A stretch of DNA of 63,740 bases, filler included, from Psammoneis japonica (GCA_008632985.1; 4 parts of 4 records of this genome joined end to end with filler, not necessarily neighbours in it); one strand, 5' to 3'. Positions 1 to 53,390 are shown, counted from the whole stretch's first letter. Notes: generated by a model not told the origin, from the letters alone. Made by a program: numbers and translations.

Positions 1-217
1 GTCAAACAAAAGGAATGCTCTCTGACACTGGAGGAGAAAAAGGCAAGAAAAGACAGGAACTGAGCCTGCAGAGAATTTGTTGGGAAACACCACGAAGTTT
101 TTGTGCAACATGTGCGTGCACTCCAATGTCATGTTCAAGAAGACATGGCATCATCGACCATCTTGCCACCAATGTGCAATGCTGGCAGTGCAACAACAAG
201 TCAACGAAGCAAGTTCA

Positions 218-1781: not shown

Positions 1782-2194
1782 ACTGATTTGGGAGAGTGAA
1801 GCTGATCATCGGAGGTGTGGGCTGTGTGCAAAGCACATGGTACAGTAGCCATACCTTTAGTGCTCTAACTAGCCCAAACATGGTAGCTTAGCTAATCGAT
1901 TAAAACAGAAATCTGGGCGTGTCGTGAAGGAGCAGCCCAACCGCTCTCTCCTTGACTCCAGTTTAACGTTGCGGGTGAGCCTGCCATCTGCTATCACCGC
2001 TCACCGCCCGTCGTGATCATGCGAGAGGGTTCTCTGCAGTTTGCTGAATACTATACTTCACCCTATTGTTTACCACGTGTGATATAATCATGTTCGTATT
2101 GACGAGCTGCTTGGTGGTTTGAACACGTCTAATGCCTTGCATGTGCAACAAGGGACTCTTCCAATAGCTGAAAGAAACCGGGAAGAGTGCTGCG

Positions 2195-3303
2195 CTAAGA
2201 CTTTGCTACAGCGGTACTTGCCACAATCTGCTCAGCCGTTTTGACGTATTTGAGGAATATTTCCTTTGTCTGCTCATAAAGCTCTTCTCGGTATCGTCTG
2301 CTATCGATTCTGACCACGGTTCTTTTGTCGTTGGAACTCCATTCGAAACACCGGTCGAAATCAATATGCCAAAGTTTTCCCGTGCTGTCAACCAATACTT
2401 GAAAGTCCCGCACAAGGCAACTTATATCCTGGATAAGTTCCAGGGTTTTGTTTATCTCGTGCCTAAAGTTACGAAGGAAGGATTCGCTGTCGCTCGACGC
2501 GGCCACAATTTCATCCAAATGCCCCTTTGCGTGTCTGTATTTGTTGGAGGTACAACCGAGGAGCAGCGACGGTTGAGGAGCCATTTTTACTCTATACACG
2601 GCAGCCATTCCTTTGGCATAGTAGCCTTTCTTGATCATTTTCTGTCGGGACTCTCTCATTAAAACTCTGTTCATCTCAGATGCATCATTCTGGCTTAGAT
2701 GTATAGACTGAACTGGACCAAACAGAGTGGATATCGAGTACTCCTTTTCAACCATTCTCGCAAGATCCCAAGCTTTTTCTCCGCTCGCAACAAAAAAGTT
2801 TAGTTGTTCTTGTGTGACCAAATAACCAAAGCGGGGACTTCGCCCTTTTCGCGGAAAAAACATTTCTCCACCCCACAGTTTGCCGGAACAGTTAGATTCA
2901 AGTTCTCCAATGCAAATTTCTTTGGAGAAGAATGATCTGAGTCAGACACGAGTTTGACTCCTTTTCATTTCTTGTGCCGTTTCTTTGTCCTCTTTGTTCG
3001 TATTTGTCAATATCGCCTTTGTACATGTCTACTTGCTCTTGACCTTCTCGATTGTCCTGCTTGTTGCTTCTATGTTTTTCGCGTGTGTCCGACAAAGATT
3101 GCCTTTTTGATGTGGGCGGAAGATCCTTCGTGGCAGAATCTTTCCTGATGGACTTGGATAGCGCTGCATATAGAGACGGTGAGTGTAATGACAGAGGGAG
3201 TTGAATTGATGTTGCTTAGAGACACGAAGGAAACTCGGAGAATCAGTTGAACGGTACTGTATCCAACGATGAACACGACGTAGACTAGTCGACGACTCAG
3301 CAT
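2195..3303 (-). pseudogene. Copy A of membrane-anchored hypothetical protein; frameshifted (real or assembly indels)
   Basis: ORFs 3070..3303, 2898..3095 and 2195..2863 together reproduce the copy C protein. Tyr codons are retained. Confidence 0.75.
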
Positions 3304-3404
3304 TTTGGAGAGGTTTCAATTACAGTCTAGTATACCTCAGCAACAGCGATGATAAATCCATCATCCAGTCTTTTTGGCAATCCTTTCATGGTCGTTGCCG
3401 CGGA

Positions 3405-4350
3405 AAAGCAAAAGGGAAAAGCAGAAAAAAGGTGGGGATTGATTCGACCGTTGGGCGCGCACAAAATTTTGATGACGACGAGCGTTGAAAGAGCGAGCAC
3501 GCAAGAGCAAAAAATGATGGCACGCACGAATTTTGTGCGCCATGAGCACACCAAATGCAATGGGGCAGCAAGTTCCACTTCTTCCTTGCCATTCAACCAC
3601 GTCCATGCCACTGGCAATGGGGAAGCCATCCAAGCCTTCTTCATCTGGTGGGGTCATGGGGAAGCCATCCCAGCCTTCATCTGGTGGGGTCACCCAAACA
3701 CTCCTCTGTGTTTGCCTGGACAAACTCGCGCCCATCTCCTTGTTTTGACCCGTGTCCCTTCTTGTCAGTGATGTCATGCACAACACATCATGGACAAATC
3801 ATCAACACATCTTCTTCTCTCATTTTGCTTGCTGCAGGAGACACTGTGTTTTCCACAGGCAAATGCAGAGAGTGCAGCCAGGTGGGCATGCTTGCCTCTT
3901 GAAAGAAAGAGCTGCAAAATGCTGGCGCTCTTGTTGTTTGCAGTGGAGACAACTCTGGCCTGCATCATTCTTGGTGTGATTCACATTGAGATTGTGTTCT
4001 CTGGCTGGCAATGAGCCATTGTTGCTGAAGAAGTCATTGTGAAAATTGTTGCTGGTCAAAGAGACACACCACCGCAGATGTCTTGAAACACAAGACTTTG
4101 GACCCAGCTTCTGTTTGCTCTCATTCTGAATTTCTTTGACATGTGCCAGCTTCATTGGCTTGCTGCTGTCAAGATGGAAGAAACCTCTTTCTGTCAAGTT
4201 GAGCCTCTCGATGCCTCTCATTTCTTTGACCACTCTCCTTTCAACACCAGCGCAGTTGGGGCAATGTCCCCCTTTTGTTGGGAGCTCCTTCCAACACACC
4301 CCACAAGATGATGGAGAGCACATTTCTTTGCAAGTCATGTCAGCATTGGG
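3405..4350. mobile_element. TpA-depleted unclassified insertion upstream of copy A (second copy ~6090-7040)
   Basis: Homology of copies A/B to copy C ends at gtcgttgccgcgga (~3404). The following ~950 bp is present twice, absent upstream of copy C, and almost TA-free. Confidence 0.55.
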
Positions 4351-4748
4351 TCATCATGCATCAGAGCTGTGTGCTGTGTGCAAAACACATGGTGCAGCAG
4401 CTGCACCTTAAAGGTCCTGACCAGCCCAACCATGGTGGCTTTTAGGCAGTCATTTTTAACAGAAATCGTGGCATGTCATGCTGGAGCAACCGCTCTCTTC
4501 TTGACTCCAGGTTGACATCGAGGGAAAAGCTGCCATGTGCTGTCCCCGCTCACCACCCATTGCATCATGTGAGAGGGGTCTCAGCAGTTTGCCGCACACA
4601 CTGCTTTGCCCCTTTTGATTTAAACCAGTCGACTCAAATGTGGCATGCACAAAGACATGAAAGCACAACATGAAGGCCAACGGGCTGTGAGGAAGCCCAA
4701 AAGCCAAGGGCTTCAATCTGTGTGTGACAGATGAAAAAGGACATCTGT

Positions 4749-5987
4749 TCATTTTGATGAGCCACTTTGTGGGTTGAGCATGTGTGTTGGCTGCCTCAAT
4801 GGCATTTCTGCAGGAGAAGATTTGCGTGTGAAATGAGAGACTCTTCCATTGGCTGAAAGAACCGGGAAGAATGCGGCGCTGAGCTTCACCACAGTGTTGT
4901 TTGCCACAATCTGTCCAGCCATTTTGACATGATTGAGAAATGTTTCCGTTGCCTGCTTGCAATGCTCTTCTCGGTGTTGCCGCTTGTCGATTCTGACAAC
5001 GTTTCTTTTGTCATTGGAACTCCATTCGAAACACCGGTCGAAATCAACATGCCAAAGTTTTCCCATGCTGTCAACCAATGCTTGAAAGTCCCGCACAACA
5101 CAACTTACATCCTGGACAAGTTCCAGGGTTTTGTTTGTCTTGTGCCTAAAGTTACGAAGAAAGGATTCACTGTCGCTCGACGCGGCCACAATTTCATGCA
5201 AATGCCCCTTTGCGTGTTTGCATTTGTTGGAGGTACAATCGAGGAGCAGTGACGGTTGAGGAGCCATTTTTGCTCTGTGCACGGCAGCCATTCCTTTGGC
5301 GCAGCAGCCTTTCTTGATCATTTTCTGTTGGGACTCTCTCATCAAAACTCTGTTCATCTCAGATGCATCACTCTCGCTTGGATTTGTAGACTGAACTGGA
5401 CCAAATGGAGTGGACATCGAGTGCTCCTTTTCAACCATTCTCGCAAGATCCCAAGCTTTTTCTCCACTCGCAACAAAAAAGTTTAGTTGTTCTTGTGTGA
5501 CCAAATGACCAAAGCGGGGACTTCCGCCCTTTTCGTGGAAAAAACACTTCTCCACCCCACAGCTTGCCGGAACTGTCAGATTCAAGTTCTCCAATGCAAA
5601 TTTCTTTGGAGAAGAATTGTCCGAGTCGGACATGAGTTTGACGTCCTTTTCATTTCTTGTGCCTTCATTTTGTCTTTTTTGTTCATGTTTTTCAATGTCG
5701 CCTCTGTGCATGTCTATTTGCTCTTGACCTCCTTGATTGTCCTGCGTGTTGCTTCCATGTTTTTTGCGTGTGTCTGACAAAGATTGCCTTTTTGATGCGG
5801 GCGGAAGATCTTTCGTGGCAGGATCTTCCCTGATGGACTTGGACAGTGTTGCATGTAGAGACGGTGAGTGCAATGACAGAGGAGTTGAGTTGATGTTGCT
5901 CAGAGACACAAAGGAAACTTGGAGAATCAGTTGAATGGTGCTGCATCCAACGATGAACACGACATGGACCAGTCGACGACTCAGCAT
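4749..5987 (-). pseudogene. Copy B of the same gene: open frame but hypermutated (no Tyr, original stop lost)
   Basis: 412-aa ORF colinear with copy C. All Tyr are replaced by His/Cys. The end GCT TAG appears as CTC AGC (1-bp deletion plus TA->CA). Confidence 0.8.
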
Positions 5988-7566
5988 TTTGGAGAGGTTT
6001 CAATTACAGTCTAGCACACCTCAGCACAACAACAACGACAAATCCATCATCCAGTCTTTTTGGCAATCCTTTCATGGCCGTTGCCACGGAAAAGCAAAAG
6101 GGAAAAAAGGTGGGGATTTGACCATTGGGCACGCACAAAATTTAAAATTTTGATGAGCTTGGAGACGAGCGTTGAATGAGCACGCAAGCAAGCAAAAAAT
6201 GATGACACGCACGAATTGTGCGCTGTGAGCACACCAAATGCAATGGGGCAGCAAGTTCCACTTCCTTGCCATTCAACCATGTCCATGCCACTGGCAATGG
6301 GGAAGCCATCCAAGCCTTCTTCATCTGGCGGGGTCGTGGGGAAGCCATCCAAGCCTTCATCTGGTGAGGTCATGCAAACACTCCTCTGTGCTTGCCTGAA
6401 CAAACTCGCGTTCATCTCCTTGTTTTGAGCCATGCCCCTTCTTGTCAGTGATGTTGTGCACAACACATCATGGACAAATCTTCAACACATCTTCTTCTCC
6501 CATTTTGCTTGCTGCAGGAGACAGGCCACTGTGTTTTCCACAGGCAAATGCAGAGTGCAGCCAGGTGTGGGCATGCTTGCCTCTTGAAAAGAAGAGCTTC
6601 AAAATGCTGGTGCTCTTGTTGTTTGCAGTGGAGACAACTCTGGCCTGCATCATTCTTGGTGTGACTCACATTGAGAACATGTTCTCTTGCTCTCAATGAG
6701 CCATTGTTGCTGAAGAAGCTGTTGTGAAAATTGTTGCTGGTCAAAGACACACCACCGTGGATGTCTTAAAACACGAGACTTTGGACCCATCTTCTGTTTG
6801 CTCTCATTCTGAATTTCTTTGACACATGCCAGCTTCATTGGCTTGCTGCTGTCAAGATGGAAGAAACCTCTCTCTGTCAAGTTGAGCCTCTCAATTTCTC
6901 TCATTTTTTTGACCACTCTCCTTTCAACAGCAGCACAGTTGGGGCAATGTCTCCCTTTTGTTGGGAGCTCCTTCCAACACACACACACCACACAAGATGA
7001 TGGAGAGCACATTTTTTTGCAAGTTGTGTCAGCATTGGGTCATCATGCATCAGAGCTGTGAGCTGTGTGCAAAACACATGGCACAGCAGCCACACCTTAA
7101 ATGCCTTGACTGGCGCAACCATGGTGACTTTTGGGCAGTTGTTTTTAACAGAAATCGTGGCATGTCGTGCTGGAGCAACCACTCTCTTTTTAACTCCAGG
7201 TTGATGTTGAGGGTGAGCCTGCCACATGCTGTCCCTGCTCTCCACCCATTGCATCATGCAAGAGGGTTCTCTGCAGTTTGCCACACACACTGCTTCACCC
7301 CTTTTGTTTTGAACCAGTCGACTCAAAAGTGGAACACAGAAAGACATGAAAGCACATTATGAAGGTTAACCAGCTGTGAGGAAGCCCAAAAGCCAAGGGC
7401 TTCAAACTGTGTGTGACAAAGGACAAAGGACATCTGTTCATTTTGATGAGCTGCTTTGTGGTTGAGCGCGTGTAATGGCTGCCTCAATGGCATTTCTATA
7501 GGAGAAGATTTGCATGTGCAATGAGAGACTCTTCCATTGGCTGAAAGAACCAGGAAGAATACGGCA

Positions 7567-8676
7567 CTAAGCTTTCACCACAGTGTTGTTTGCCACAATC
7601 TGTTCAGCCATTTTGACATAATTCAGAAATGTTTCCTTTGCCTGCTCGTAACGCTCTTCTCGGTAACGCCGCTTGTCGATTCGGACAACGTTTCTTTCGT
7701 CGTTGGAACTCCATTCGAAACACCGGTCAAAATCAATATGCCAAAGTTTTCCCGTGCTGTCAACCAATACTTGAAAGTCCCGCACAAGGCAACTTATATC
7801 CTGGATAAGTTCCAGGGTTTTGTTTATCTCATGCCTAAAGTTACGAAGAAAGGATTCGCTGTTGCTTGATGCAGCGACAATTTCATGCAAATGCCCCTTT
7901 GCGTGTTCGTATTTGTTGGGGGTACAACCGAGGAGCAGCGACGGTTGAGGAGCCATTTTTACTCTAAACACGGCAGCCATTCCTTTGGCATAGTAGCCGT
8001 CCTTGATCATTTCCTGTCGGGACTCTCTCATTAGAACTTTGTTCATCTCGGATGCATCATTCTGGCTTAGATGTATAGACTGAACTGGACCAAACAAAGT
8101 GGATAACGAGTACTCCTTTTCAACCATTCTCGCAAGATCCCAAGCTTTTTCTCCGCTCGCGACAAAAAAGTTGAGTTGTTCTTGTGTGACCAAGTAGCCA
8201 AAGCGGGGATTTTCTCCCTTTTCGCGGAAAAAACATTTCTCCACCCCACAGCTTGCCGGAACAGTTAGATTCAAGTTCTTCAAAGAAAAGCTGGTTGGAG
8301 AAGAATGATCTGAGTCAGACACGAGTTTGAAGTCCTTTTCTTTTTGTGTGCCGTTTCTTTGTCCTCTTTGTTCGTATTTGTCAATATCGCCTTTGTACAT
8401 GTCTACTTGCTCTTGATCTTCTCGATTGTCTCGCTTGTTGCTTCTATGGTTTTCGCCGGTGACTGACAAAGATTGTTTCTTTGATGAGGGTGCAAGGTCC
8501 TTCGTGGCAGGGTCCTCTCTGATGGACTTGGGTAGCGTCAAAGATATAGACGGTGAGTGCAATGACAGAGGAGTTGAATTGATGTTGCTTAGAGACACGA
8601 AGGGAACTCGGAGAAGCAGTTGAACGGTGCCGTATCCAACGATGACAATGACGTAGACTAGCCGACGACTCAGCAT
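7567..8676 (-). CDS. Copy C, intact 369-aa hypothetical type-II membrane protein with a possible atypical kinase-like C-terminal domain
   Basis: Starts MLSRRLVYVIVIVGY (N-terminal hydrophobic anchor, start shared with copies A/B). Low-complexity stem, then CGVEKCFF and DFQVLVDSTGKLWHIDFDRC motifs. Confidence 0.75.
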   Translation of the reverse strand: MLSRRLVYVIVIVGYGTVQLLLRVPFVSLSNINSTPLSLHSPSISLTLPKSIREDPATKDLAPSSKKQSLSVTGENHRSNKRDNREDQEQVDMYKGDIDKYEQRGQRNGTQKEKDFKLVSDSDHSSPTSFSLKNLNLTVPASCGVEKCFFREKGENPRFGYLVTQEQLNFFVASGEKAWDLARMVEKEYSLSTLFGPVQSIHLSQNDASEMNKVLMRESRQEMIKDGYYAKGMAAVFRVKMAPQPSLLLGCTPNKYEHAKGHLHEIVAASSNSESFLRNFRHEINKTLELIQDISCLVRDFQVLVDSTGKLWHIDFDRCFEWSSNDERNVVRIDKRRYREERYEQAKETFLNYVKMAEQIVANNTVVKA

Positions 8677-8757
8677 TTTATTTCCTGTCACAGTTGAGCA
8701 ACAACGATGATAAATCCATCCTCCAGTCTCTTGGTAATCTTCAAGGTCGTTGTAGCG

Positions 8758-8784
8758 GATGATGATGATGATGATGATGATGAT
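8758..8784 (+). repeat. (GAT)n microsatellite, ~9 units
   Basis: gatgatgatgatgatgatgatgatgat, seen directly. Confidence 0.95.
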
Positions 8785-8959
8785 ACAGTGTTCCACCGCG
8801 AAGATTGTCAAATAAATCGTCAAGACATACATGCAGTCATTGTGACTCGCCGTTTCAATGACTTCAGAAACGTCACTGAGGTGACCTGCTGTAGGGCCCT
8901 AGAAGAAGAGTCGTTGAGAGTCTCCTCGCGCCTCACAATCTCAATTAGTTGCTGTAACA

Positions 8960-11200
8960 CTGGCACCTAGAATTGCCTCAAGCTTGCCAAGGCATGCAAT
9001 GCAGTCGTCAACAATGAGGGCACGGACGAATGATTCCCAGAGCATGGGGCCACATTTGTGGCTGCCATGACAATGTGCAAGATGGAAAAATGTGAGTGGA
9101 AACCTTGTGGTGTCATGCCGCCATGCTTTTCTCAAAGCAACTGCCTTGCTGGCATGACAGGCAAAAAAGCCTGCAATTGCATTGCCACTGTTCCAGCACT
9201 GGTCATCACAGACACTGCACAATGGTGGCCTGCCTGCACTCACCGCACTCTGTCAGCAGCCACCATCTTTGTCGTTTGCTTGTCGCTCAGTTGTCTTGGG
9301 CACTCATCACATGCACCCAAGCAAAGTGATGGCACAGGCCATGCTCTGGTTGCTGCCATGTGACCAACAAGCTGTGCCAATTTGGAGAGTGAGTCACATG
9401 CTCTGTTGAAATGATCGATGCCAACACCTTCTCTGAGCAAAATGAACAATTTGGCAACGTGATTCACCCAGCACCCAGGTGCCAAAAGTGAAAAGCATTC
9501 TGTGCAGAATCTGACATTGACCCAGCACATGAAGTTGAGGATCCATTGCAAGTGACCATGAGTGTCAAGATGAAGCTGAAGCTGAGTGCAATGCTGGCGC
9601 ACCTTGCAAGGAATGGCAACCTGCGAGCCAAGATCAGGGCCTTTCTCAAGCTTTTGTTTGCTTCTTTCACTGGCAGTGCAGTTGAAGCAAAGTGCTCTTT
9701 TTTCATTTGGAAAGTTGTTCCCAGCACAGCATGAGCAACATGACTGGAGAGAGCACCTTTGCAAGTCTTCATTCTCAACATCTTCTTGGCTCCATGAGTT
9801 TGACACCCCACCCTGACAAATGAGGAATGAATCGCTGCCTGCTTCAGCTTGTTTGCCATCGGTGCTTTGATGGCTTGTGTGTTTTGGAGGCAACACCCTG
9901 ACCTTGCTTTTGCTGAAGCCTGGGGCATCATGCCAGTCTCAACATCAATCTGTGTCAGACAAAAAAATGTTGGAATGTTGAGCCAGGAATGCTCCAAAAT
10001 GGTGTCTGCATCTTTTGCCAGAAACTCCAAGCTGAACAAAGAAGATGTGCTGGATTTGTTTGTTTTTTGAGGAGCCTGGGGAAGCTGAAGCTGCATTTTC
10101 TCTTCTTCAATGTTTGCCCTCTGCAACTGTTTTTATCATCTCCATCCATGTTTGCTCTCAATGTCAGGAAGTGGTGCTGCTGTCACAGATGGGACAAGAT
10201 CTTCATCATCGCAGCTGCCATCTTCATGCCCTTGTTTGCACTGCTTGTTCTGTGGGCTGCAAGTTGCTGTGGTGCTTTCTGGGTGCAGCACTCAAGCTTT
10301 TGACTCTCCACACTGCAACTCTTCAGTGCCAAGATCTGCAGTGACATTTTTGACACTTTGCTGTTCAATGTTTTTGGTGCAGCTGCCACAGCAGACCACC
10401 CAACTCCATTGATTTGCACTTTGACAGCTTGGCTGATGAAGCAGCTTCTGGAGCTGCTGCAGATTTGTTGGTTGTGTGCAGCAACACTTTGTCATTTTCC
10501 ATCAGTGCCTTGTGTGCCTGGTGGCAGAGCAGCTCAAGTTTCAGCATGACATTTTCATTTGAGTGCACACAAGCCAAGAGGGGCACAGCACACAGAAACA
10601 GCACTTTTCTCATCAATGTCAGCTTGCCTTCAATGTGTCACAGTCCAGTTGGTTGTTTTGTTTCAGTTGCCCCACCACACATTTAAAAAAAGCCATGGCT
10701 GTCTCACAAAAACTGGCTGCCACCCTCTCTCTGTGACACCTTGTGCATTGCAACAGTCACATGATGATGATGGTGCAAGCTTGTTGCATTGACCAATCAC
10801 ACTCAAGTGCCTGGTGCATCTTTCTTTGCCTGCATCAAGTCTTGGAAGCTGCTTTCTTCTTGTGACTGTTGGCTTTGAGAGAAGTGTCAAAGCCATGCCC
10901 AGCTGAGTTTGAGCATGCACAGGTGGTGCTTGCAACAACGCCAAGTTGTTGTCCATTTTGGTGTCAGCTTCATGTCATGCATGTTGCCACAACAGTTGGC
11001 ACTGAGGCAGAAATGCATTGGTCACTGTTGCACCTGAAAAACTGCAAATGGATCAAAAGCTGGGATTTGAGTGTCAAGCACAAGCTGACTTGCAGGCTGG
11101 CATTGCCTGCAAATGTCATGTGAGCTTTACAATGAAGTTTGCTGGCCGCCAAGCAACTGCTCTCTGTCTTTGTGTGAAAAAGGGGGGTGGGGTGACACTT
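8960..11200. mobile_element. Heavily decayed unclassified repeat/transposon sequence
   Basis: Nearly TA- and CG-free; overlapping Tyr-free ORFs in all frames; no recognisable motif. Confidence 0.4.
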
Positions 11201-11209
11201 GATGACTTG

Positions 11210-11525
11210 GCGCACTGTGCTTGGAGAACAAGCACAAATGAAAGCAGAGTGGACAACAAAAAGTGGACATTGTGAGACAAATTTTGCTCTGCAATTTTTG
11301 GTTTCTCTGAATGAATTCTCTCAATGGCCCAAAGCATTTGTGCTGCTTCCACAGACTGAAAGGCTTTTCAGAGAATGTGATTGTGACAGCAGATTGTCTG
11401 GGTGTGACTGACACTGCCACCTTGTGTGTCAACATCATCAAGGGATCTTGTTTGCAATTCTCAACATCCAACAATTGTGGACATGTGCACAACTTTCTTG
11501 CTCAACAACACATGTTGCACTTGAA
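11210..11525 (-). repeat. 3' LTR-like direct repeat of the gypsy element (ends approximate)
   Basis: aaaaagtggacattgtgaga...tctcaatggcccaaag...actttcttgct.acaacaca matches 15990-16390. Confidence 0.7.
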
Positions 11526-11555
11526 TTCCTTGCTGCACATTAGAGTCATTCATTG

Positions 11556-11769
11556 AATGGTGTCATTTGACAGATGTTGACAGTGTCAATGATCTCTCAC
11601 CATGTTTGATCTGCACTTGCTGTGCTGTCAGTGTGTGCCATTGTCATTTTGTGGTGGGGCCAAATGGCATCATTTGACAGATGTTGACAGTGTCAATGAT
11701 CTCTCACCATGTTTGATCTGCACTTGCTGTGCTGTCAGTGTGTGCCATTGTCATTTTGTGGTGGGGCCC
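11556..11769. repeat. 107-bp tandem duplication of the integrase 3' end
   Basis: Near-identical units starting aatgg at 11556 and 11663. Confidence 0.92.
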
Positions 11770-14700
11770 AGCATGGGGCTGCTCTGATTTTGAGAGTCTT
11801 TCTCAAGCAATGTCTTTTCTTCTGCTCTGTGCTGCACATGTGAGAGAAGCACATTGAGCATTTTCTCAAGCATTGTTTTTATTTTTAGATTTTCTTTTTT
11901 CTTTTCTAAACAAATTTCCTGTCAGCAAGAACATGTTGGATGTCAAATGTGACATGCCTGTTGAAGACCAACTGTCCTGGTGCAGCTTGCACAGCAGTGT
12001 GACATGTTGAGTGCACTCCAAAGGCCGCTGCTGACAGGATTCCTGTGAAAGGATTCTCTTTGTCTGGAGGTTTATTTTGTAGATCAAATGTGTGCAGCAT
12101 GTTGCCCAGTGCTCAATGCTTGTGCTGAACAATGGTGTCAGCTTGTGGATTTTGGGCACCAGCTGTGGGCCTGCACTCAATGCCACAGTCCTCTTTAACC
12201 ACAGTTCTGAGTTGGTGTTCAGTGAACTCACTTCCACAATCACAAGCAATTGAAGATGGTCAAGGGCACTCACTCAACACCACGTTCTTTCCAGCAGTCC
12301 AGCAACAGTCATGGATTCCTCATTTGGAATTTCTGCCAGTGCTTCAAACAATCCTGTTGCTGGATCAACCATTGTGAAACATTTTGAGACCAGTGGTTTC
12401 TTTCTGCCCTTTCAATGCATTTTGCATGGTTCAATGACATTCACACATCTTCCCCATTGCACTGCTTCCACACACTCAGGAGGCCAATGTTTGTGTTTCT
12501 TCTGTTTCTTTTTTTAAATTTCTGGCATTTTTCACATTTTGACACGCATTTTTCTCATGTCTTTGCGCAAGGCAGACCACCACAAGTGTTGTGAGATTGT
12601 CTCTTTAGCTCCACTCATGGTGCCAAGGTGCACAAGGCATGCATGGTGCACCAACCCATCACTCTGCCTTTTTTGACATCTTTGGCATGATCTTTGTGTG
12701 ACATGTTGCACCCAACAATTTGGAGAGAATGTCCTTGCCCCACTTTTGTTCAGCATCAAGAACTTTGCACGTAAAAATTGAAGGACATTGTTGCAGGATT
12801 TGGGTGCAACATTCTCAGCCAATTCTTCAGCGGCTGCTGAGGTTTTCTGTTTTCTTCACAGTGAGTCAGCTGATTGCATCTGCAATGACACCAGCCTTGC
12901 CCTTTTGAGGTAAATTGTTTTTGAGCTGCATTCTTCTGTTGTCAGATGCCAACACATGACTCTGTTCACAGCAAAATTCCAGTGAGTGAGATTTTTAGGA
13001 CCCACAAATGTTTTCATCTGTTGGCCAAACAGTGTGTTGCAGAACTCTTTTGGATTTTCTGCAAAGGACAGAAGTTCTTCTTCCATTGTGGTGTGGCATG
13101 TCTGCACTCCATTGAGCTTGCAGCTGCAGAAGGCAGTGGGTCTGTCATCTTGTGTTGTGACCACTCCCAATTGAGAATCACTGATGGTGGTGTGCATCTC
13201 AAATGGTTTGTTGCATTTGGGTGTGACAACAACACATTTTTGACATGAAATGCTTCATGTTTTTGAAAGCCTTTTGTTCCATGCTTGTCTGTTGCCACTT
13301 GACCTTGCTTGAGGTGATTTGGCCAGACAAGTGAGTGCATGAGATTGTCAAGGCCAAATGCTCCAATTCCTTGTGAGTGGTGGGAGCTGCAATCACTTGA
13401 ATTGCCTCCACTTTCTCAGGGATTGGTCTGAAGCCATTTCAGGTGATGTGAAGGCCTGGATGGTCCACTTCAGGCTTGGATTAAATAGACTTTTTTTGGC
13501 ATTAACTTTTAAACCAGCTTGTTTGAGCCGTGTGAATGTCATTTTAAACTTGTTCAGGTTGTGTTTGAAGGCACCTTTTATCAGGCACATCATGTCATCA
13601 AAATGAGTTCTGAAAACTCCAAACCTGCCATGAGCTGGCTTGTGTGTTCTTGAAAACATGTGAGGCTCCACAAACATCCACCATGGTGAGTCTGCAGCAC
13701 TCACACTTGCCCCATGGCACACCACAATTGCACACAAGCAACATGCATGTGGTGTTAATTTGACATGGTGGTGTTCCATGTTCAAATCAAGTGAGGTCAC
13801 ATGCATGGACCCTTCTGGTTTTTGCAGCACATCTTCAATGTTGGGCAAAGGAAATGGAGTGTGTCTTGACCTTTTGTTGAGCTTGCAGAAGCCAGGCAGG
13901 AACCAAACTTGACCATTTTTCTTGGGTTGAACAAAAGTTGGAGCTGCCCATTCAGAATGGTTCATCTTTCTCAAGACTTTCAATTTGCATTGTTGGTCCA
14001 CTTCCTTTCAAGCAATTGCCTCCAAGGCTTGTGGCACAGGAAATGGTTTCACGTGACACAGAGTTGCAACCAACTTCAATGCAAAATCTGCTGGTCTTCC
14101 TGTTCATTTTGCCTGAGGCCTGACACACCATCAAAGAGGGGTTGAAACCTTTTTGAGCAAGAAGTTCAGTTGTCTCTGTTCTTCTGGGGCTGGATGAGTT
14201 GCTGCCATGGTGGTCACATTGTTGAGGTCAGCAGCATGACAGTCAGAGTCAAGGATCTTGTTGATCCTGTTGTCAAGGCCATTCACAGCATGAGATTCCT
14301 CAATGCAATTGGCAATCAGCTTGAAAACATCAGGCATCAAAGAATGTGCCAACATCTTTCATTGGTGCAGTTGCATCTTCCCATTTGATTTTGTCATTTG
14401 CAAAGTCTGACATGACTCCAAGACTGCTCATCAAGTTGTGTCCCAAGACCATGTCACATTGACATGAAGAAGAAGGGGTGCTGCACCACATTCTTAATCA
14501 ACTTGTGTTTGTCAAATTCAGGTGATGAAAACTGGATTTTGCATTGGCTGTCAGTCACAAAGAGTTCACCCTTGGTTTCTCAAGTCTTGGTTGCAGATTC
14601 CTCAGTTCTCAATTTCCACATGAATTTGCACAAAATTGTGGTTTTCTGTCAAGAAGAATGTGCAGAGGCTTGTTTTTTGTTTTCCACAAAGAGGTGCTCA

Positions 14701-15989
14701 TGTGAGGAATGATTGCTGGACTGGTGTGAGTTGTTTGGCCTTTTCCTGGGCTTGTTGGTGTCCAGTGATGTGCAAGACTCCTCAACAGGTGCCAGTCATT
14801 CCTCAGAATTGCTGCGAGTCATTTTCTCAAACTGAAACTTTCCTCTCTGAGGGCATCAGTGTCAGAGTCACAACTCTTGCTCTTGCACTCTTGTCCTTTG
14901 TCAAGAAACTTGCCTCAAGTGTCATCTTGACCACCTGGGCAATCAGAGCATCAAAATCTTCTTTTTGAAAGGCATTGTCAGCATTGCAACAAGGCCAGCA
15001 TGTGCGATTGGCATTTTGGACATTGCTGTTTTGGGTTCCATTTAAAATTTTTTGGCATTCTTTTGCCAGTTTTTAATGACCCAGCATTGCTTGGTCCATG
15101 TCATAGCATTTTTTTGCAACAGTTGCACCGCTTGTTGACTTGGGCCATTTGGCACCAGATTGGCAACCATTTTTGGGACCACAGCACCACGGGATCTGTC
15201 CTGGGCTTTAGAGCCAGGCTCAGTGGTGGGCTCAGATTCGACATGGATCTGGTCAAATGATGTGTCCTTGGCAACCTCCAAATGCTCCACAAAATCAACC
15301 AACCTGTCAAAGGTGTGGTCTGAGACTTCCAAACATTGTGGGTTGACTGATGCAAGCATCAAGAAGGTGCAAGGATGATGTTGCAGAGCTCATGTTAAGC
15401 AAGATTTTGCTTTGACTCATGGGGAGGACTGCACTTGAAGTTTTTGTTGACCTCCTGCATTCAAGCAGCAATTTCTTGAATTTTTCATGGTGTCTGGTTT
15501 CTGGAGATCAAGATCATGCTGTGGACGCCTTTTCTGATTTTGAGGAGTGTTCTTGGGGAAGACATGGTTTGAAAGATGCTGAAGACATTTTTCAAAGGCT
15601 CCTTTGTCTTTTCAGTCTTCAACGCTTGTTGCCTTTCTCAAAAACTTGCAGAGTGTCTCCATGCAACAACAACATGTGCACAAGCTGGAACTTGTCAGCT
15701 TGCTTCTGGATGATCTGAAAGTTTTTAAAATTTTAATGTGCTTGGGAACTCCCTGCTTGTTGTGGTGATTGACATCTGTCATGTGGGTGCAGCTTTTCTT
15801 GCATCTTAAGGATGAAAATGCTGCTCCACATCTTGAGGTGCCGGCTTGGTTCAAGCAACTTTGGCGTGGAAATCAAATCCAGTGGCACAGGCACAATCTT
15901 CTCCTGCTTGATCAAGGACTTTGGGTGGATTGGCCACATGAGACAAAAGCTTCATTTTCATGTTTTTGCTTTTTATGGCATTTGTGCAC

Positions 15990-16390
15990 AATGCACAGTG
16001 CTTGAAGAACAAGTGCAAACAGAAGTGGAGCGGATCGCACAAAAAGTGGAAATTGTGAGATTAAAATTTGCTCTGTGATTTTAGATTTCTCTGAACAAGT
16101 TCTCAATGGCCCAAAGTGTTTGCACTGCTTCTGCGCACTGAAAGTCTTTTAGAAAATGTTGTCATGACAACAGATTGTCCAGATGCAATTGACGTTGATG
16201 CCTTGTGTGTCAACATTGTCAAGGGATTGCATCATTTGCAATTTTTGACATCTCACAAACTCTGTGTGATCAATCTGACCTTCATGTGCATGTCCACAAT
16301 TGTGGTGCAATTGACACATGTGACATTGCACAATTGTCAGCATGTGCAAAACTTTCTTGCTTGACAACACATTGTGTTGCATTGGCAGGC
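15990..16390 (-). repeat. 5' LTR-like direct repeat of the gypsy element (ends approximate)
   Basis: Homologous to 11210-11525, with an extra internal segment. Confidence 0.7.
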
Positions 16391-16399
16391 TGTTTGTTT

Positions 16400-18380
16400 T
16401 GCATGCTTTGGTGCAAAAATGGCACCCAAATGACAAAACCAAATCACCAGCCTTTCATTGCTCCGATGCGACCATTGGGTTTTTGTCACATTTGGAGAAC
16501 CAAGAGGCAAGCAGGCCACTTTGGTTTGCTTCCATGCAAATGTGGCAGACCCACATGTGTGCACCAAACTGAGTCACTTTCAGTGCTGAAATGAAGACAA
16601 AAAGACAGATCCTCATGAGTGGAAGGGTTGTTGGCACTTGTTCCCAGCTTTGAGAAGCCTGCCATTTGGTCGTGTCACACAAAAACTCAGCACAGCAATG
16701 ACTTCCTGGGAAAAAATCTGATGAAATTTTCTGGCATTGTTGGCTGCACAAAGCAACAAGGTGTCTGAACAGCTGAGTGGAGCATGCTCCTGTGGCATGT
16801 GGGAACTCTGGTGAGTTCACTTGTTTGGCATGAAGGATGTCTTTCAAGTGCAAATGGTCGCAACATCCTCTTGCCATGTGCTTGAGAAGAAGTGCTTTTT
16901 GTGGCTATGGAGCAGATTGCTGTGCCACATTTGAGTGGCTCAAAGTCTCACAGATGCCCACTCATTGCACTCAAAAGGTTGGCCATGATCATGTGCAAGA
17001 AGCAAGTGAACATGCCACAATCATTGGCCTGAGGAGCTTGGCTTTTGCTGCCAGCTTTAGAAAAGATTGCACTGTGCTCCTCCCAAAAAGAAACTTTGGC
17101 CAAGTTTTTCTCAAGATCTTTGCAGCCACACCCCTGTGTCAACTTGGGAGTGGTGAGAGGCAAAGCAGACAAAAAACCCACTCTTTCAACTGAGTCATGT
17201 GAACCACTGACAAGAAGCAGAAATGCCTGTTGCAAGTCAAATCATCTGCAGCAAATGTTCGAACAAAATGAGCTTTGTTTCTTCAAACCAACTGACCCTG
17301 CCCCATTCCCATCACAAAGGCTTGCAACACATTGCTTGCTCACAAGAACAATGATGTCACACAATCCACACACCAGTGCTGGTGTGTTGTTAAACCAGTT
17401 GGTGTTGGAGTGACAAAGTGAGGACATTGAGATGTCAATGATGAGCTGTGCATGGCATGCCAAAAGCCCACCTTGGCTCCACAGTGTGGTCTGCCACAAA
17501 TGTTGGAAGAAAGGTGATGATCAGCAAATCCAGCTTTGAAACATGCATGAGTTTGCACCACCCCTGCACAGTGCTCTGGGTGTTGGTCATTGAGCGCTTT
17601 GCAGCACACTTTGCATTGACTCTGTGTGCATCATGCAGAGTCATTTTCCTTCATGTGCTCACATTGTCCCTGCATCAGATTGTGGTGCTGCTGCTGCTGC
17701 TTGCCCTCTTCATTTGCATGCCTTTTCATTGGCAACAGGAGCACTTTGCATATTTTGTGTTCCTTTTTTTTGACAGATGCGGGAGTTGAGTGCAATGAAA
17801 GTGCAAACAATTGGTGCATCAAGGTCAGTGTGTGTTGTCAAAACATCAACTGTTGAAGCCTTTTCATTGCCTGTTTTAAAAAGGATTTGAGGAGTGATTT
17901 GGCAGAGCTCCATGCTCTTCCCATCAAGAAGATTGGTTGACTTCACAGGAAAAACGACCAACCACCTGCTGGTTTTTCATTCCTTGAATGCCTCAGTTTC
18001 TTGCACAGCTTGCATTAACAAAATTGGCTGCTGGCAGCTTGGAAGTCACCATTTGTTGCCTTGATGGCATTGGGCAGTCTCTCTCATGCTGTTGCTGGCA
18101 CAAAAGAACTCATTTTGCAATGGATTCAATCTCTGACCTGCTCTGGGAGGTTGCTGCAGTTCTTTGTCTGGGTGGCAAGAAATCTGATGTCAACATTGAG
18201 GCATGAAGACCCACCATGGTCCTGGCAAACCAGGCCATTTGGTCCTCTGGAGTTTCCAAAATCAATTCAGGGCATTCAGCACCTTGGATTCCTTCCAATG
18301 CGGGAGTGGTCTTGGAACCAAATGGCAGCTTGGGCACTTGGGAACAGTGGGTGTGTGGCAGAGCTTGTGCAAGATTTTGC
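16400..18380 (-). mobile_element. Decayed transposon-like sequence with a possible Ulp1/C48 protease remnant
   Basis: 16948..17235 contains PQANDCGMFTC, resembling the Ulp1 Q.N..DCG.F catalytic motif. The region is TA-depleted. Confidence 0.35.
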
Positions 18381-18480
18381 NNNNNNNNNNNNNNNNNNNN
18401 NNNNNNNNNNNNNNNNNNNNNNNNTTAATTAATTAANNNNNNNNNNNNNNNNNNNNNNNNNNNNNNNNNNNNNNNNNNNN
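18381..18480. other. Assembly gap with artificial six-frame stop linker TTAATTAATTAA (18425-18436)
   Basis: Identical linker inside N-runs at three places in the window. Confidence 0.97.
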
Positions 18481-20460
18481 CCTTTGTTGCGGCACGTTGG
18501 ATCTTGATTGTTCTCCCTCTTCTGGGTTTGTTGGCAGTGGTGATGCTTTCTACAATCTGCTCAATGCTGGTCCCCATCTTGCATGTGCCTTCAGTGAGCA
18601 TGGTCCACCCTCGTCGTACCCGGTGCCATCTCTTCCGTTTCGGCGTGCATCCGGGCTTGTGGTTGGGGTCGGTCGCGTAGAAGTAAATGTGGATCAGGAC
18701 CATCGCTGTCGACAGTAAAATTAGAGCATGAGCTAGCAGCTTTTGTTCAATCACTCGTTTGTTTTCAAATGAGAGCGACGTCATTATGATGGTCATGTGG
18801 TTGCAGGCGAATGCCTGCCAGGCGAAGAGCGCAGTTGCCTTGATGATCGCAAAACACTTCGACGCCATGGTTTCCAACCCATGTCCATCACAACCGCTGC
18901 AGCCGTGCTCAAGGAGTCATTGAGACTCCTCGCCCGAGTCCTGCCCGTCCACTGCGGCTTGGCATGCTTTGTTGAGCTTGAGCCGTGGGTGTCCGTCAGG
19001 TCCCTTCTGTTTCTTGTGGGGTGGTGCTGTAGACTCGTTTTTCTGTGGCTTGTTCTTGCCTTCTCTGCCTTCACATTGGGAGGGCTTGTGGACACGCCAC
19101 TTGCCAGAACACTTGCCGCCGGCACTCTTCTCACACCAACAGCATGCGGCACCTTTCCAAGTTCTCGGGTTGGTTGGCTGGTCTCGTTTGGGACGCCTGT
19201 GTTTCTTCAACCACGTGGGCTTCCCGTCTTTCTGAGCACCTTGAGGCGCGTCGTGGTCTTTTCCCTTGTTTCCCGTCTTCTTGTGGGATTTCTTGCTGAG
19301 GGCCTCCACTTGAGCTTGGAGAGCCAAGATCTTTTCTTCAGACGCACTGGGGGTGTTCCACAGCGATTTCTGAAGCAGGTTCTTGCACTTGTTGCCCGCG
19401 AGGTTCATAAGTTGCGACGCCGACATGTCCTCGCCCTCTTCACACTGTTCTTGCTTACGCTCGATGTGCTTGACAAAAACTTTGTCGGAAGCAGCCAGGC
19501 ACCCCTTGAAGAGGTTCGTAAGCAGGTCCTCAGTGGTTTCGCCTCGTGACTTAAGGGCGGCAAGCAATAATGCCACGTGCTGGTTGAACTTCAAGATGTC
19601 ATGACCGATCGTTGGGAGACGGAGGTCGAGTTGACTCAATTTCGTTCGGATCGCACTCGTCGTGGCGTTCGTGTCGAGGTGGGATTCTCTGATGATGATC
19701 TTGAGAAGGAGATTTCCGGACATACGATCTCCGATCTTGTATTCTGATTCCCAGATCCTCACTTTATCCTTTCCGGCTTTCGACATGGAGTTCATTAGGC
19801 AGCGATGCGCTAGACAGGCATCTTGCACTGCGCGACTCTCGTCACCGATGTAGGATTCTTCAAAGCCCCGGATCCTCTCTAGGTCCATCTGACCATAGTC
19901 GGTCAACAGATTAGACCTCTCGGATTCCAGGATGTCTTCGTGGTCTTCTGGGATCATGAATGCTCCGTTCTCATCATTCCACCCAAACTCTCTGGCTCTG
20001 TCTTCCAAGTTCTTGAGGAACTGGCACAGGTCTCCTGGTTCACAATCGAACAATTCCTCGTCCAGCGGCTTGGTGGCTTGCTCAAAAAGCTTACGACCCG
20101 CACTCGAACGACAATCGATGACCGTGGTGATCGCTTGTGCCGGAGCCAATGCAAGTGGGACATCTTCGGGAACATCTCCCAGCTCCGGTCCAGAAACGGA
20201 CGAAGCGTCTGAAGAGGCGTCAGACATGTCACTCAGCGCAGAGGAAGCGTGTTTAAATGCTCAAAAGCAGATCAGCAGCGGTAGCTAGTGATGACTAGCA
20301 AGCATTGGGGCGATCAAATAGGTGTTACAATAACAGCTGTAGTAAAATTGTGAGGATGTGAGAGGCTCCTCGTCTCTCATTGAAGACCGATGTTTATGAG
20401 TCATTTTTGGGACAGTGAGTCATAATGTAATGACGTATGAAATATGATATCTTCACAACA
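18481..20460 (-). mobile_element. 5' part of a diatom copia-like (CoDi-type) LTR retrotransposon, cut by the gap
   Basis: gag ORF followed by the start of a second ORF. TGTTG...AAACA (minus strand, 20460-20391) may be a short LTR (uncertain). Confidence 0.65.
18917..20227 (-). CDS. Gag-like protein of a copia retrotransposon (436 aa, partly hypermutated)
   Basis: LLLKIIIRESHLDTNATTSAIRTKLSQLD, LLTNLFKG.LAASDKVFVK.IERK and C-terminal WC..C..W..H....C knuckle, as I recall from diatom copia gag proteins. Confidence 0.75.
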   Translation of the reverse strand: MSDASSDASSVSGPELGDVPEDVPLALAPAQAITTVIDCRSSAGRKLFEQATKPLDEELFDCEPGDLCQFLKNLEDRAREFGWNDENGAFMIPEDHEDILESERSNLLTDYGQMDLERIRGFEESYIGDESRAVQDACLAHRCLMNSMSKAGKDKVRIWESEYKIGDRMSGNLLLKIIIRESHLDTNATTSAIRTKLSQLDLRLPTIGHDILKFNQHVALLLAALKSRGETTEDLLTNLFKGCLAASDKVFVKHIERKQEQCEEGEDMSASQLMNLAGNKCKNLLQKSLWNTPSASEEKILALQAQVEALSKKSHKKTGNKGKDHDAPQGAQKDGKPTWLKKHRRPKRDQPTNPRTWKGAACCWCEKSAGGKCSGKWRVHKPSQCEGREGKNKPQKNESTAPPHKKQKGPDGHPRLKLNKACQAAVDGQDSGEESQ

Positions 20461-25200: not shown

Positions 25201-28170
25201 TTTTGGTGTGTGCCTCATGTTGCACATGCACACATTCCCACATGACTTTGGTGGCATTTTGCATCATTTTGCAGTCACATGCATTGCTCCCAGCACACAA
25301 ACATTGGATCTTGTGGGCAGAACTCATTGGGCCCACATCACATGGAGTCCTGGCTGGGGCTGAAGTGTGCACATCAGCAGAATTTTGTTTCTCTCACTGG
25401 CAGAGGACCTTTCTTCTATGCACATGCTGACCATGCAATGCACTTTGCTGCCTCAAGATGAGTTGTCAGTGTTGGAGATTAAAAAAGAACAAACAGGGGG
25501 TGCAAAACACAGTGAGCCACACTGCCCTGTCTTTGAGCAATGCACAAACAACAGCAAGGCAGAACATGTGCTCACACACACCACCTGGCTCCAGCCCCTC
25601 TTCAGGCCAAAAGAAGGCCAAGCTGTTCTTGCAGATTGCTTTGATTGAGAACCATGCTGCAGGTGCTGGTTGTTGTGGCAAATCCATCACAAAAACTTGC
25701 ACCCCAACTGGTGCCAACTCTTGAGCAAGCTTGCTGAGATGGAAGGTGTCAAGGGCTGGGCCTTGATCAACAAGTCCATTGCTGTGAAGGCTTGTGCTGC
25801 ATTGAGCCAAACAACCCTTGAAGCAATTCTGGCAGAAATTGTTGAAATGGTCAGAGTGACCCACACATCCAATCATCATGGTGGAAACCAGACAAATTCT
25901 TTTGCCAACAGGAGTCAAGGAACCAACTCCAACAGAAGAAACCAACAGCCCAACACTGCATGTCCCGTGCACAGCATTTTACAAGCAGCATCAACAAAGC
26001 TGTGCCAACCGTGGTCAACAATGGCAAGGCTCCAACAGTCACAACCAGAGCAATCAGAAGACTCAGCCAAACCATCAACACAATGCAAGGAGTTGTTCTC
26101 ATCAGTTGGGAAGAGAACAATCAAGTTCAGAGTCAACCTGCTCATTCAACTCAAGTTTGTTTGTTTGTTTGTTTGAACCCAAGCAATGCTGACAGCACAT
26201 TGTTGCAAGACATCAACAAAATCTCTGATGTGTTTGAAGTGATGAGCACTGTTCAAGAGCCCCAACCAAAAGTGCTGGACCCTGCAACAACTGCAAAAGT
26301 GACAGCTCAGTTTCTCAATGATGGAACAGGCCAGAGCAAATGTCACCTTGGCCTGCTCAACACTGGGGCACGTGGTGATTTTGTCAAGCGTGATGCACTC
26401 AAGTCTGTTCCTCATTCCATCAAAGGGGCTGTGGGTGCAAAAGTCAATGGAGGGTGCAAAGCGATCAAATCTTCCCAGCTTCCCAACATTGAAGTCAAGC
26501 TTCTGGAATTTACAAGCATGAAGAAGCATCTGCCAATGCTTGCATCAAAGAGAAGCAAGGCAACTGGGTGCCTTGATGTTGTCATTGGCGCTGCTGAGCA
26601 CACCAAAGCAATGGCATTGTCCGCAACTTCAAGACAGACTGCCTGTTGCACAGGATGATGTTGCTGTCCCAACGTGTCCAGAAGGGTTGATGGACCAAAA
26701 CAAGGCTTTGCCTGACTTTGTGCTGGCTGCCACACAATGTCAGACTTGCACCATTTGAAGCAATGAGTGTGTGAGCAGCTCAGTTGTCAGAAGATGGCAT
26801 CATGGTGCAATGATTTGACAGCAGAAAGTCAAAAAGAAGATCTGTTGGAATTGATTGGATGTCATCCCAGTTCAGTTGATGAAGCTCTTTGTGAAGCTCC
26901 TGGACCTCTGAACATGCTCTGAGTCAAGCCTGGTGCTGAGCCTTGTTGTGCCAGAGCTTGTGTCATTCCTCAAGCTCTTTGTCCCATTGCAAGGGAAGAA
27001 GTTTTGATGAGCTTGAAATTGTTGGCATTGTTGCTTGCAATGTTGCTTTTAAGTGGGGCAAGCCATGTTTGTTCTCACCAAAGGAAAACAGTGGAGTCCA
27101 ACATGTCTTAACCAACTTGAAGCACCCCAACTCATGTCTCACAAGTCACCCTCATCTGATGTCAAACCCTGATGATGTGATTTGGAAAATCAACAGGTTT
27201 GCATGGGTGCTTGCTTTGATCTCAACCACATGGCCATCATCATTCTTTTGTTCTTGACTGCCAGTCAAGCAAGCTCTGAGCAACCATCTTGCCATGGGGC
27301 AAGTGTTGTCAGCCACCCTCAACTCCCTCAAGGAGCCACGCCTTCAAGAAGTGACATCTTTCAAGCTTTTGTGAGCCAGTGCTTTGGTGATGCAGAAGAC
27401 ACCGCTGCTTTCTTTGACAATGTTCTTTTGTTTGCAAAATCAGCCTTTGTTCAGCACCTTCTTCAAAAACTTGTCAAGAATGACCTTTGCACACACATTG
27501 AAGGAACTTTTCTTGCTGGTGCCAAGGTTGGCATTTTTGGGACATCATGTCAAAAGGAAGGGTGTCACGCCTCAGAAGCAGAAAATTGTTCCCATTTTTT
27601 TGCTTTGCTTCTCCCAAAAACAGAAGTCAGCTGAGGTCATTTAATGGATTCACAAATTTCCATGAGAAATTGTGGCATTGCAAGAGACACACACCACGAC
27701 ACCTCTGATGGCTGTGGTCACTCCCAAGATCAAGCTCAAGTGGTCTGAAGTCAAAGAGCAATCTTTCCAAGCCATGAAGAAAATCATTGCTTGCCAAGTC
27801 TTGTTGCACTTTCCTGATTTCAGCACAACTTCTGCATCTACCCTGGTGCAAGTGACTGTCAACTTAGCACCACCACAATTCAAGTGTTTGAAGATGGCAA
27901 GTGGCCCATTGCACTCTGCAGTCACAAATTGTTTGAAGCTCAGTGCAGCAGAGAAGGAGTTGCTGTCCATCATCAAAGCAATGAGTGCACTTCACTTGGC
28001 TGTTGTTCAGTTCAAGTCAGAGCACATCAAACACAGGCGGCACCTCTTGTTGGAAGAGTGTTGCTGCACTTTTGAACACTGTCCTGGCAAGGACAATGTC
28101 ATCACCAACAGTTTGAGCCACCGTCCAGTGATTGATCATGTCTCCACTGATTGCTTTGAAGAAGCCATGA
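25200..28170 (+). mobile_element. Degenerate Ty3/gypsy element (gag-PR-RT-RNaseH; integrase missing)
   Basis: PR HLGLLNTGA (~26345). RT PCLFSPKENSG, CFDLN, LPQG..DIFQA, FFDNVLLF. RNaseH VLLHFPDF, EKELLSII, LLLEE...FEHCPGKDNV. Confidence 0.85.
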
Positions 28171-30200: not shown

Positions 30201-30309
30201 CCATGACATAGACGCACTTGAACACACATAACGCTGTTTTGTTTTTCCAAGACTTGACACTTACACCAACACTTCCTTGACTAACACACCTCTCATACGT
30301 GTGTCTTGC

Positions 30310-36813: not shown

Positions 36814-36913
36814 NNNNNNNNNNNNNNNNNNNNNNNNNNNNNNNNNNNNNNNNNNNNTTAATTAATTAANNNNNNNNNNNNNNNNNNNNNNNNNNNNNNN
36901 NNNNNNNNNNNNN
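36814..36913. other. Assembly gap with TTAATTAATTAA linker (36858-36869)
   Basis: N-run with linker. Confidence 0.97.
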
Positions 36914-53100: not shown

Positions 53101-53390
53101 TCTGGTGATTTTGTCATGTATTAGTAGCTCTTCAAAGGATTTGTGTTCATCACTGCCAACAAAAACATTTTGTGTCGTCCAGTGGGCGGCGCATGTGCCT
53201 CACCCACTGGATGGTCCGGAGGAAACCATTGATTACAGTGCTGCGCGATCGATGACGTCAGCTATGTTAGAACTCGCGCGCGCGCGGGCTTCGATGACGT
53301 GTGCGATGCTCAACGTCACAAAATCTGCAACAAACCAAAAAAGAGTTCGGAGGCGACAAAACGACCACATACAACAGCAACAAGACAACC

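Follow-up and report, generated by a model that had tools for sequence, protein, structure and literature searches.

Erasure of TpA dinucleotides in Ty3/gypsy retrotransposons of the diatom Psammoneis japonica

In the diatom Psammoneis japonica (assembly GCA_008632985.1), a host process turns TpA into TpG or CpA (A becomes G after T, on either strand) in transposable elements after their insertion, and an old Ty3/gypsy element at positions 11540–15950 of the stretch analyzed here is its end state. This stretch (hereafter, the window) is 63,740 nucleotides (nt) long and consists of separate contigs joined by N gaps with the spacer TTAATTAATTAA (18381–18480, 36814–36913, and 55057–55156); only positions 1–18380 belong to the contig that carries the element (G000:C470). 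The process leaves kilobase tracts either near-saturated or nearly untouched, favors TAY (TAT and TAC), and spares host genes, and the tracts it hits also show increased CpG decay.

An old Ty3/gypsy element lies on the minus strand, with its body at 11540–15950. Its decayed and frameshifted gag-pol (11650–15800, minus strand) was delineated with tblastn using 40 of 120 outside relatives, with blastn, and with Pfam, and retains the order protease, reverse transcriptase (RT), RNase H, and integrase, which is also the order in young copies; the outside relatives contain PF00078, PF17917, PF17921, and PF00665. In blastn, the region is 68–72 per cent identical in nucleotides to a young 5.18-kb family, and its Pfam matches to RVT_1 (E = 5e-4) and RT_RNaseH_2 (E = 2e-5) both lie below the curated cut-off. 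The body is flanked by a 5' long terminal repeat (LTR) at 15993–16370 (outer end approximate, estimated from the LTR length of 380 bp in the young family) and a 3' LTR at 11212–11590 (inner end approximate), both on the minus strand; the two are 75 per cent identical to each other over 269 nt and 68–76 per cent identical to young-family LTRs. No target-site duplication of the window copy itself was identified. A second assembly of the locus (G000:C336) is 99.8 per cent identical over window positions 9001–17686. A 106-nt tandem duplication (98 per cent identical) at 11556–11768 is single in that second assembly and is either an allele or an assembly error.

Within 11540–15950, there are 28 TA dinucleotides versus 332 expected and 17 CG dinucleotides versus 217 expected. 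The minima among 1,000 shuffles of the region were 289 and 184, respectively, and both shortages are therefore beyond chance. Among the surviving TAs, 20 of 28 lie in TTAA, TTAG, or CTAA. The erased domain, in which both TA and CG are depleted, encompasses the element and its flanks (9000–18380), with an observed-to-expected ratio (O/E) of TA of 0–0.18 per 500 nt.

The first-pass annotation of this DNA had proposed, from the loss of conserved tyrosines, that TA is the ancestral state, and had named relatives with native His or Cys as the finding that would overturn the proposal. We aligned the best 120 of 1393 outside relatives and scored 20 columns, each with at least 90 per cent Tyr among the 120. 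Tyr occupies 2344 of the 2400 cells, whereas His (13) and Cys (1) together occupy only 14, and no relative has more than two Cys or His residues at these columns. For the window copy, a local identity filter of 0.33 removed nine of these columns; at the 11 that could be mapped, it reads Cys at six, His at four, and Tyr at one (12910–12912, TAC). Control columns are largely kept (Phe 9/11, Trp 6/8, Pro 16/20, and Glu 14/18). Because the outside relatives keep Tyr in nearly all cells, TA is the ancestral state, and on the evidence of these alignments the direction of mutation, TA to TG or CA, is settled. At the nucleotide level, the window copy reads CA at 94, TG at 87, and TA at 6 of the 228 columns with TA in young copies, and TG at 76, CA at 75, and CG at 7 of the 189 columns with CG; dinucleotides other than TA and CG are retained at 62–79 per cent.

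The individual motifs, all of which read as first quoted, follow the same direction. In the RT domain, LDLNMEHHH (13765–13791) has His (CAC CAC) at both Tyr columns, and the YxDD motif reads THFDD (13594–13608), with His (CAT) in place of Tyr and both Asp residues retained; Tyr is found in 120 of 120 relatives at each of these three columns. In the RNase H domain, AFCSCKL (13114–13134; TGC AGC TGC) stands where 119 of 120 relatives have the Tyr of AFYS, and CHTT (within 13084–13137; the two RNase H motifs together occupy 13087–13134) carries Arg-to-Cys and Tyr-to-His changes at a motif, RYTT, whose Tyr is present in 120 of 120. In the integrase domain, HSTCHT (11996–12013) has His for Arg and Cys (TGT) for Tyr. 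These motifs lie on the minus strand. The motif LLLEECCCTFEHCPGKDN (28044–28097, plus strand) had been quoted with them, but it lies outside 11540–15950, in a second, more decayed gypsy pol fragment on a different contig of the joined window (26976–28220, plus strand). The claim that the quoted tyrosines are conserved across gypsy elements holds for the RT and RNase H motifs and less well for the other two, as the RSTYHT column has Tyr in 82 and Phe in 24 of the 120 relatives, and the LLEEY column has Tyr in 93 and Phe in 27. The additional CpG decay suggested for older copies is borne out by the window element: conserved Arg is kept at only 5 of 21 mapped columns, and 13 of the 21 read Cys, His, Gln, or Trp.

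To see how the process acts, we turned to the 91.4-Mb genome (597 contigs), which has at least 150 RT matches. Among 40 stretches taken, 26 are full-length alignable copies of the 5.18-kb family (23 young and 3 older); the remaining 14 were excluded as partial, rearranged, or representing the second assembly of the window locus. The young family has 380-bp LTRs ending in TGCA...TGCA and 4-bp target-site duplications. Across the LTR pairs of 16 copies, 442 positions differ: 149 are TA/CA or TA/TG, 202 fall within CA/TG doublets, 41 are of CpG type, and 50 are other. The mutations thus arise in chromosomal DNA after insertion. The two products are equally frequent across copies (TG 1706 versus CA 1747), so both strands are hit equally. 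RNA editing of the ADAR or APOBEC type, which predicts hits on one strand and identical LTR pairs, was rejected on both counts, and the same observations oppose editing during reverse transcription. Strand-coordinated runs of hits were not found, as adjacent hits are of the same type at the permutation level (0.506 versus 0.494 ± 0.007). Hits on both strands without runs would imply many rounds, one round of deamination passing the changes of one strand to a daughter cell. Copies were hit independently: at doubly hit sites shared by copies, the choice of TG or CA is alike in 63 per cent, ancestral columns included.

The change is specific to its context. The frequency of A>G minor alleles is 0.209 after T versus 0.003–0.007 after G or A, and the hazard of a TA being hit depends on the base at +1 (relative to A: T 3.2, C 3.1, and G 1.4). 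Since TAT and TAC are favored, Tyr codons are preferred targets. N6-methyladenine at ApT was considered as the mark and rejected, given that TAC and TAT are hit about equally (3.1 versus 3.2). In alignment columns 500–1750, all copies of the young family have few TA columns and a higher GC content, which suggests that its parent elements had already gone through earlier rounds.

The hits are also organized in tracts. In columns 3300–4000, 13 copies lost 0.02–0.24 and 10 copies 0.74–0.88 of their TAs, and in columns 4500–5050, 8 copies lost 0.02–0.16 and 15 copies 0.79–0.95; these two internal domains are strictly bimodal in the 23 young copies, whereas the 5' part of the element is graded (0.19–0.86). 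Mutually exclusive hitting of the two domains was considered, and the 23 copies split 5/5/10/3. Tract class was rejected as a subfamily trait, as markers cut across classes (judged by eye). CpG loss is 3–10 times higher in hit tracts, rising from 4/403 to 32/310 and from 3/272 to 39/505, and private CpG loss is tied to hit tracts (odds ratio 3.1, p = 1e-6). Private A>G changes outside TA are about four times as frequent in hit tracts (99/36506) as in spared ones (8/12397), and 78 of these 99 have a 3' pyrimidine. Private G>A changes (36/26596 in hit versus 12/8716 in spared tracts) and transversions are equally frequent, from which it follows that hit and spared tracts are about equally old. 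Neither the three older copies nor the window copy retains a spared tract, and CpG loss in them is advanced; the order of decay is TA first and CG later.

These data also bear on whether there is any such process, rather than native His and Cys, editing of RNA or during reverse transcription, or an artifact of assembly. In favor of this possibility, only one assembly was examined, and the sole public run that contains the family (X1) lacks the insertion that was tested. Nevertheless, relatives keep Tyr, LTR pairs differ, and copies choose between TG and CA near-independently. Spared tracts retain their own subfamily markers and the background rate of private changes, which argues against polishing or conversion; the second assembly of the window locus is nearly identical, and the mark is present in other data sets. 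We therefore regard this possibility as largely refuted and scarcely credible. The flanks of the empty site in run X1 differ by ~2 per cent and thus derive from another strain or allele, and the absence of the hit insertion from this run means that the insertion is recent or heterozygous. In the same comparison (L060:7194–8936), several CA/TG doublets appear, each of them an ancestral TA or CG that the two strains or alleles have resolved in different ways.

Our best explanation for these patterns is adenine deamination in methylated, silent DNA, about which we remain evenly divided between confidence and doubt, and any enzyme named for it is a candidate only. The tracts would be CpG-methylated silent chromatin; a deaminase with the TadA/ADAT/ADAR fold would be drawn to them and convert A to inosine, which replication would then fix as G, with the cycle repeated many times. 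The 3' pyrimidine preference, both on and off TA, resembles the context preferences of TadA-derived editors, for which the available part of one report lists TAT, TAC, CAT, GAC, and GAT as promoted and CAG, AAG, CAA, and AAA as inhibited motifs (PMC10879117); the part available of a second report holds no TadA context data (PMC10661471). Diatom transposable elements are CG-methylated by DNMT5a, according to the accessible text of PMC9998398. In the P. japonica genome, we found a TadA-like gene (C38), an ADAT2-like gene (C26), and two A_deamin genes (C40 and C79), as well as 27 C5 DNA methyltransferase matches (on C43, C10, C59, C78, C27, C301, C297, and others), several of which are full-length in a single frame and some of which are broken. 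A search for the AAG/MPG glycosylase that removes hypoxanthine (PF02245) gave no match in the genome, and the same search matched only 4 of 14 controls.

Several observations weigh against deamination in methylated silent DNA. The deaminases resemble ordinary enzymes acting on tRNA or nucleotides, their scanned exons encode no chromatin domain, and an endonuclease V gene that could repair inosine is present. From sequence alone, an A-to-G change looks the same as T-to-C on the opposite strand, and methylation of the tracts is itself read from CpG loss. The TA state of a flank does not correlate with that of the adjacent LTR (rho = −0.12, p = 0.44, 46 ends), and spared LTRs are found within fully erased flanks, so that simple spreading of silent chromatin fails to explain the pattern. 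Tract borders recur at similar element positions (approximately columns 2800–3300 and 4000–4470) across subfamilies. Finally, the tracts are read from the assembly, as run X1 carries the empty site (joint 2012–7194) of the tested insertion. A central polypurine tract was considered as a border, given a long purine run at column 4091 near one of the recurring positions, and was rejected because hits on two strands oppose timing during reverse transcription.

The recurring borders and the failure of flank state to predict LTR state are what would be expected if the same chemistry were aimed by homology, through repeat pairing like that of repeat-induced point mutation (RIP) or through small RNAs, with borders marking the extent of the partner or guide. 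That a tandem triplet in the window (see below) is hit in its middle copy alone is also consistent with such aiming, and an inverted pair of copies could yield hairpin RNA. However, the two LTRs of one element, which are a linked repeat, often differ in state, and a hypermutable region of Bigelowiella natans is single-copy in the available text of a recent preprint (bioRxiv 10.64898/2026.01.13.699255); we consider targeting by homology decidedly unlikely. The inverted pair, two young-family copies at L044 (G000:C10:125500–134500), is recorded here as a possible source of hairpin RNA.

Error-prone synthesis in silent or methylated DNA, in which a Y-family or repair polymerase inserts G opposite T at TpA as a by-product of repair, would account for the coupling to CpG decay, for the absence of strand runs, and for the rise of A>G at AA, CA, and GA in hit tracts. 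We nonetheless think it unlikely, because private AA>AG changes in hit tracts number 48/14413 versus ~75 per cent of TA lost, a specificity far sharper than the motif of polymerase eta, which is WA (W, A or T), and because neither transversions nor G>A are raised there. It is also conceivable that T is the damaged base, an oxidized or modified thymine that pairs with G in the RTA context (R, A or G), since TA is palindromic and the data equally describe T-to-C before A. The genome has no Tet_JBP match, which is weak evidence as the search was silent in controls too, and the 3' preference fits TadA-type editors as described in the available part of PMC10879117. We find thymine damage very doubtful.

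By the genetic code, TA-to-TG and TA-to-CA changes turn no sense codon into a stop and remove TAA and TAG. The stronger case for damage comes from the young copies. Among ~350 conserved columns, they have 11–46 changes, mostly of the TA type, with Y>C/H, L>P/S, I>T/V, and T>A predominating, and they often keep long open frames (up to 1066 amino acids [aa]); none of the 26 copies has Tyr at all 20 columns, the maximum being 15. As judged from these substitutions, young copies are likely to be inactivated by missense load. The window copy retains the LD and DD aspartates, and it is these residues, not Tyr, that are catalytic in RT. This copy also bears frameshifts and stops that TA-to-TG or TA-to-CA changes cannot make from sense codons, and its death is therefore not assignable to the TA process alone. 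Functional knockout, as first annotated, is plausible from the loss of conserved Tyr, but in the window copy part of the damage has another origin. By this route transposons would accumulate missense changes, and a role in defense is probable.

Other loci in the window show the same mark or its absence. A gene of no recognized Pfam family, for which an atlas search gave only scores under 0.9, is tandemly triplicated at 2160–8900 with a 2.69-kb period, and only its middle copy (4752–5999, minus strand) is TA-erased, which provides an internal control of direction: 31 of 38 TAs shared by copies 1 and 3 read CA or TG in copy 2, and the middle copy has no Tyr in 416 aa versus 17 in 443 aa. An element with an NDC10_II domain, presumably Crypton-like, lies at 36987–38571 (minus strand; PF16787, E = 2e-14) and shows TA-to-TG/CA changes relative to two genomic copies; where the genomic copy L090 has TA, the window element reads TG at 23, CA at 17, and TA at 14 sites, with 1 of 15 in the reverse direction. 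It is what the first-pass annotation called a recombinase, and its knockout would be a prediction from the shared DNA signature. Two host genes are spared, namely those for a 5-oxoprolinase (30232–34346, plus strand; TA O/E 0.53–0.61, CG about 1.0, Tyr normal) and a HAD-family phosphatase (53298–54566, plus strand; TA O/E 0.51, CG 1.02). Long open frames at 18917–20260, 57357–58331, and 58665–60881 are nearly free of Tyr (0–3), have no Pfam match, and are probably TA-erased mobile or duplicated genes.

The mark extends beyond P. japonica. We searched a profile of nine hit RT pieces against proteins and scored 150 representatives, four of which have 6–7 Cys or His residues at Tyr positions and 7.5–10.9 per cent TA-type changes at conserved columns (median 1 per cent); a fifth flagged protein, P0215, was set aside because His is native in its family. 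For two of the four, identity to anything scored in the P. japonica genome does not exceed 59 per cent in one case and 47 per cent in the other. When metagenomes were scanned for the motif in its Cys-Cys form, a pattern that itself selects hit copies, 23 loci were returned (21 gypsy and 2 by chance). Their whole-locus TA O/E is 0.05–0.61 (at most 0.2 in eight), with sharp borders in some, and the gypsy sequences are 63–70 per cent identical to the P. japonica family over pieces of at least 189 nt. Two related record series, in which many copies overlap, account for 19 of the 21 gypsy loci and probably represent one organism. On contig L123, an intact gene adjoins an erased gypsy element. The named relatives of this gene are mechanosensitive channels of the diatoms Seminavis robusta (64 per cent) and Nitzschia inconspicua (54–59 per cent); P. 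japonica has seven matches to this channel family, and the best match of the gene there is 48 per cent. Judged from these identities, and allowing for paralogy or a chimeric contig, a second, rather distant diatom carries the mark. At L113:3846–4287 and L123:5125–5571, a four-base microsatellite is found as mixed CATG/CACA/TGTG units, as expected if TA steps had been erased.

Our literature searches, which left subscription journals mostly outside their reach, found no published description of a TA-erasing process in diatoms. The closest known system is that of B. natans, in which Mettrop et al. describe TpA-only A:T>G:C hypermutation of integrated nucleocytoplasmic large DNA virus and virophage DNA (bioRxiv 10.64898/2026.01.13.699255). 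In the portion of this preprint available to us, the process is ongoing, with a rate raised ~1000-fold in growing cells of some lines only; ADAT2 is put forward, as a proposal, as the candidate enzyme; an extension to transposons is suggested; and TE-type Pfams are enriched among TpA-poor genes. The two processes share the change of TpA to TpG or CpA on both strands, acting locally on silent foreign DNA. The corresponding features are seen here in the near-restriction of A:T-to-G:C changes to TpA (181 of 228 TA columns read CA or TG in the window copy) and, within the window, in the sparing of host genes and the local action on foreign or repeated DNA. The B. natans process was measured in mutation-accumulation lines at two viral regions that are single-copy and retain much of their TpA (Rho 0.45), whereas ours is read from genomic transposon copies and a duplicated gene. 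Near saturation (O/E 0.05–0.1), all-or-none tracts, TAY preference, and CpG coupling are features of the diatoms and do not appear in the available B. natans text.

RIP of ascomycetes is similar in that dinucleotide-specific transitions wreck repeats and spare genes, and it is linked to cytosine methyltransferases (DNMT4/RID). It acts premeiotically through pairing and creates TpA and stop codons. Fungal RIP itself was rejected, as it changes C:G to T:A and the main change here is A:T to G:C. The tract borders agree with a trigger by repeat pairing without deciding the matter. Diatoms possess DNMT4-like genes (PMC9998398, available part), and, whereas RIP proceeds from C to T in the accessible text of the B. 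natans preprint (bioRxiv 10.64898/2026.01.13.699255), the diatom process destroys TpA, raises GC, and removes TAA and TAG. TadA-derived editors, ADAT2/3, and ADAR share with it the change of A to G via inosine and the preference for 5' T and 3' pyrimidine (PMC10879117, in part), but they are engineered or RNA-directed, unlike the diatom process. The affected elements resemble the GyDi Ty3/gypsy elements of diatoms in their protease–RT–RNase H–integrase order, LTRs, and target-site duplication, as far as the available text of PMC2806351 describes them.

The TpA signature was known from one rhizarian preprint; new here is its occurrence in transposons of at least two diatoms, where it gains testable properties in the TAY preference, the all-or-none tracts, and the coupling to CpG decay. 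As a tentative generalization, which we think possible but rather doubtful, a natural double-stranded DNA adenine deaminase steered to methylated kilobase domains may erase TpA as a genome-editing defense in several diatom lineages, and perhaps broadly in algae of the SAR group (stramenopiles, alveolates, and rhizarians), inactivating transposons through missense changes that strike Tyr first and create no stops. Should a deaminase underlie the process, that enzyme would be a natural DNA adenine editor, and the process, if true, an inverse of RIP. Elements killed by this process look intact because of their long open frames, and LTR dating is inflated. Tyr-free, Cys/His-rich database proteins, such as the four among 150 representatives, can be used to find further hosts.

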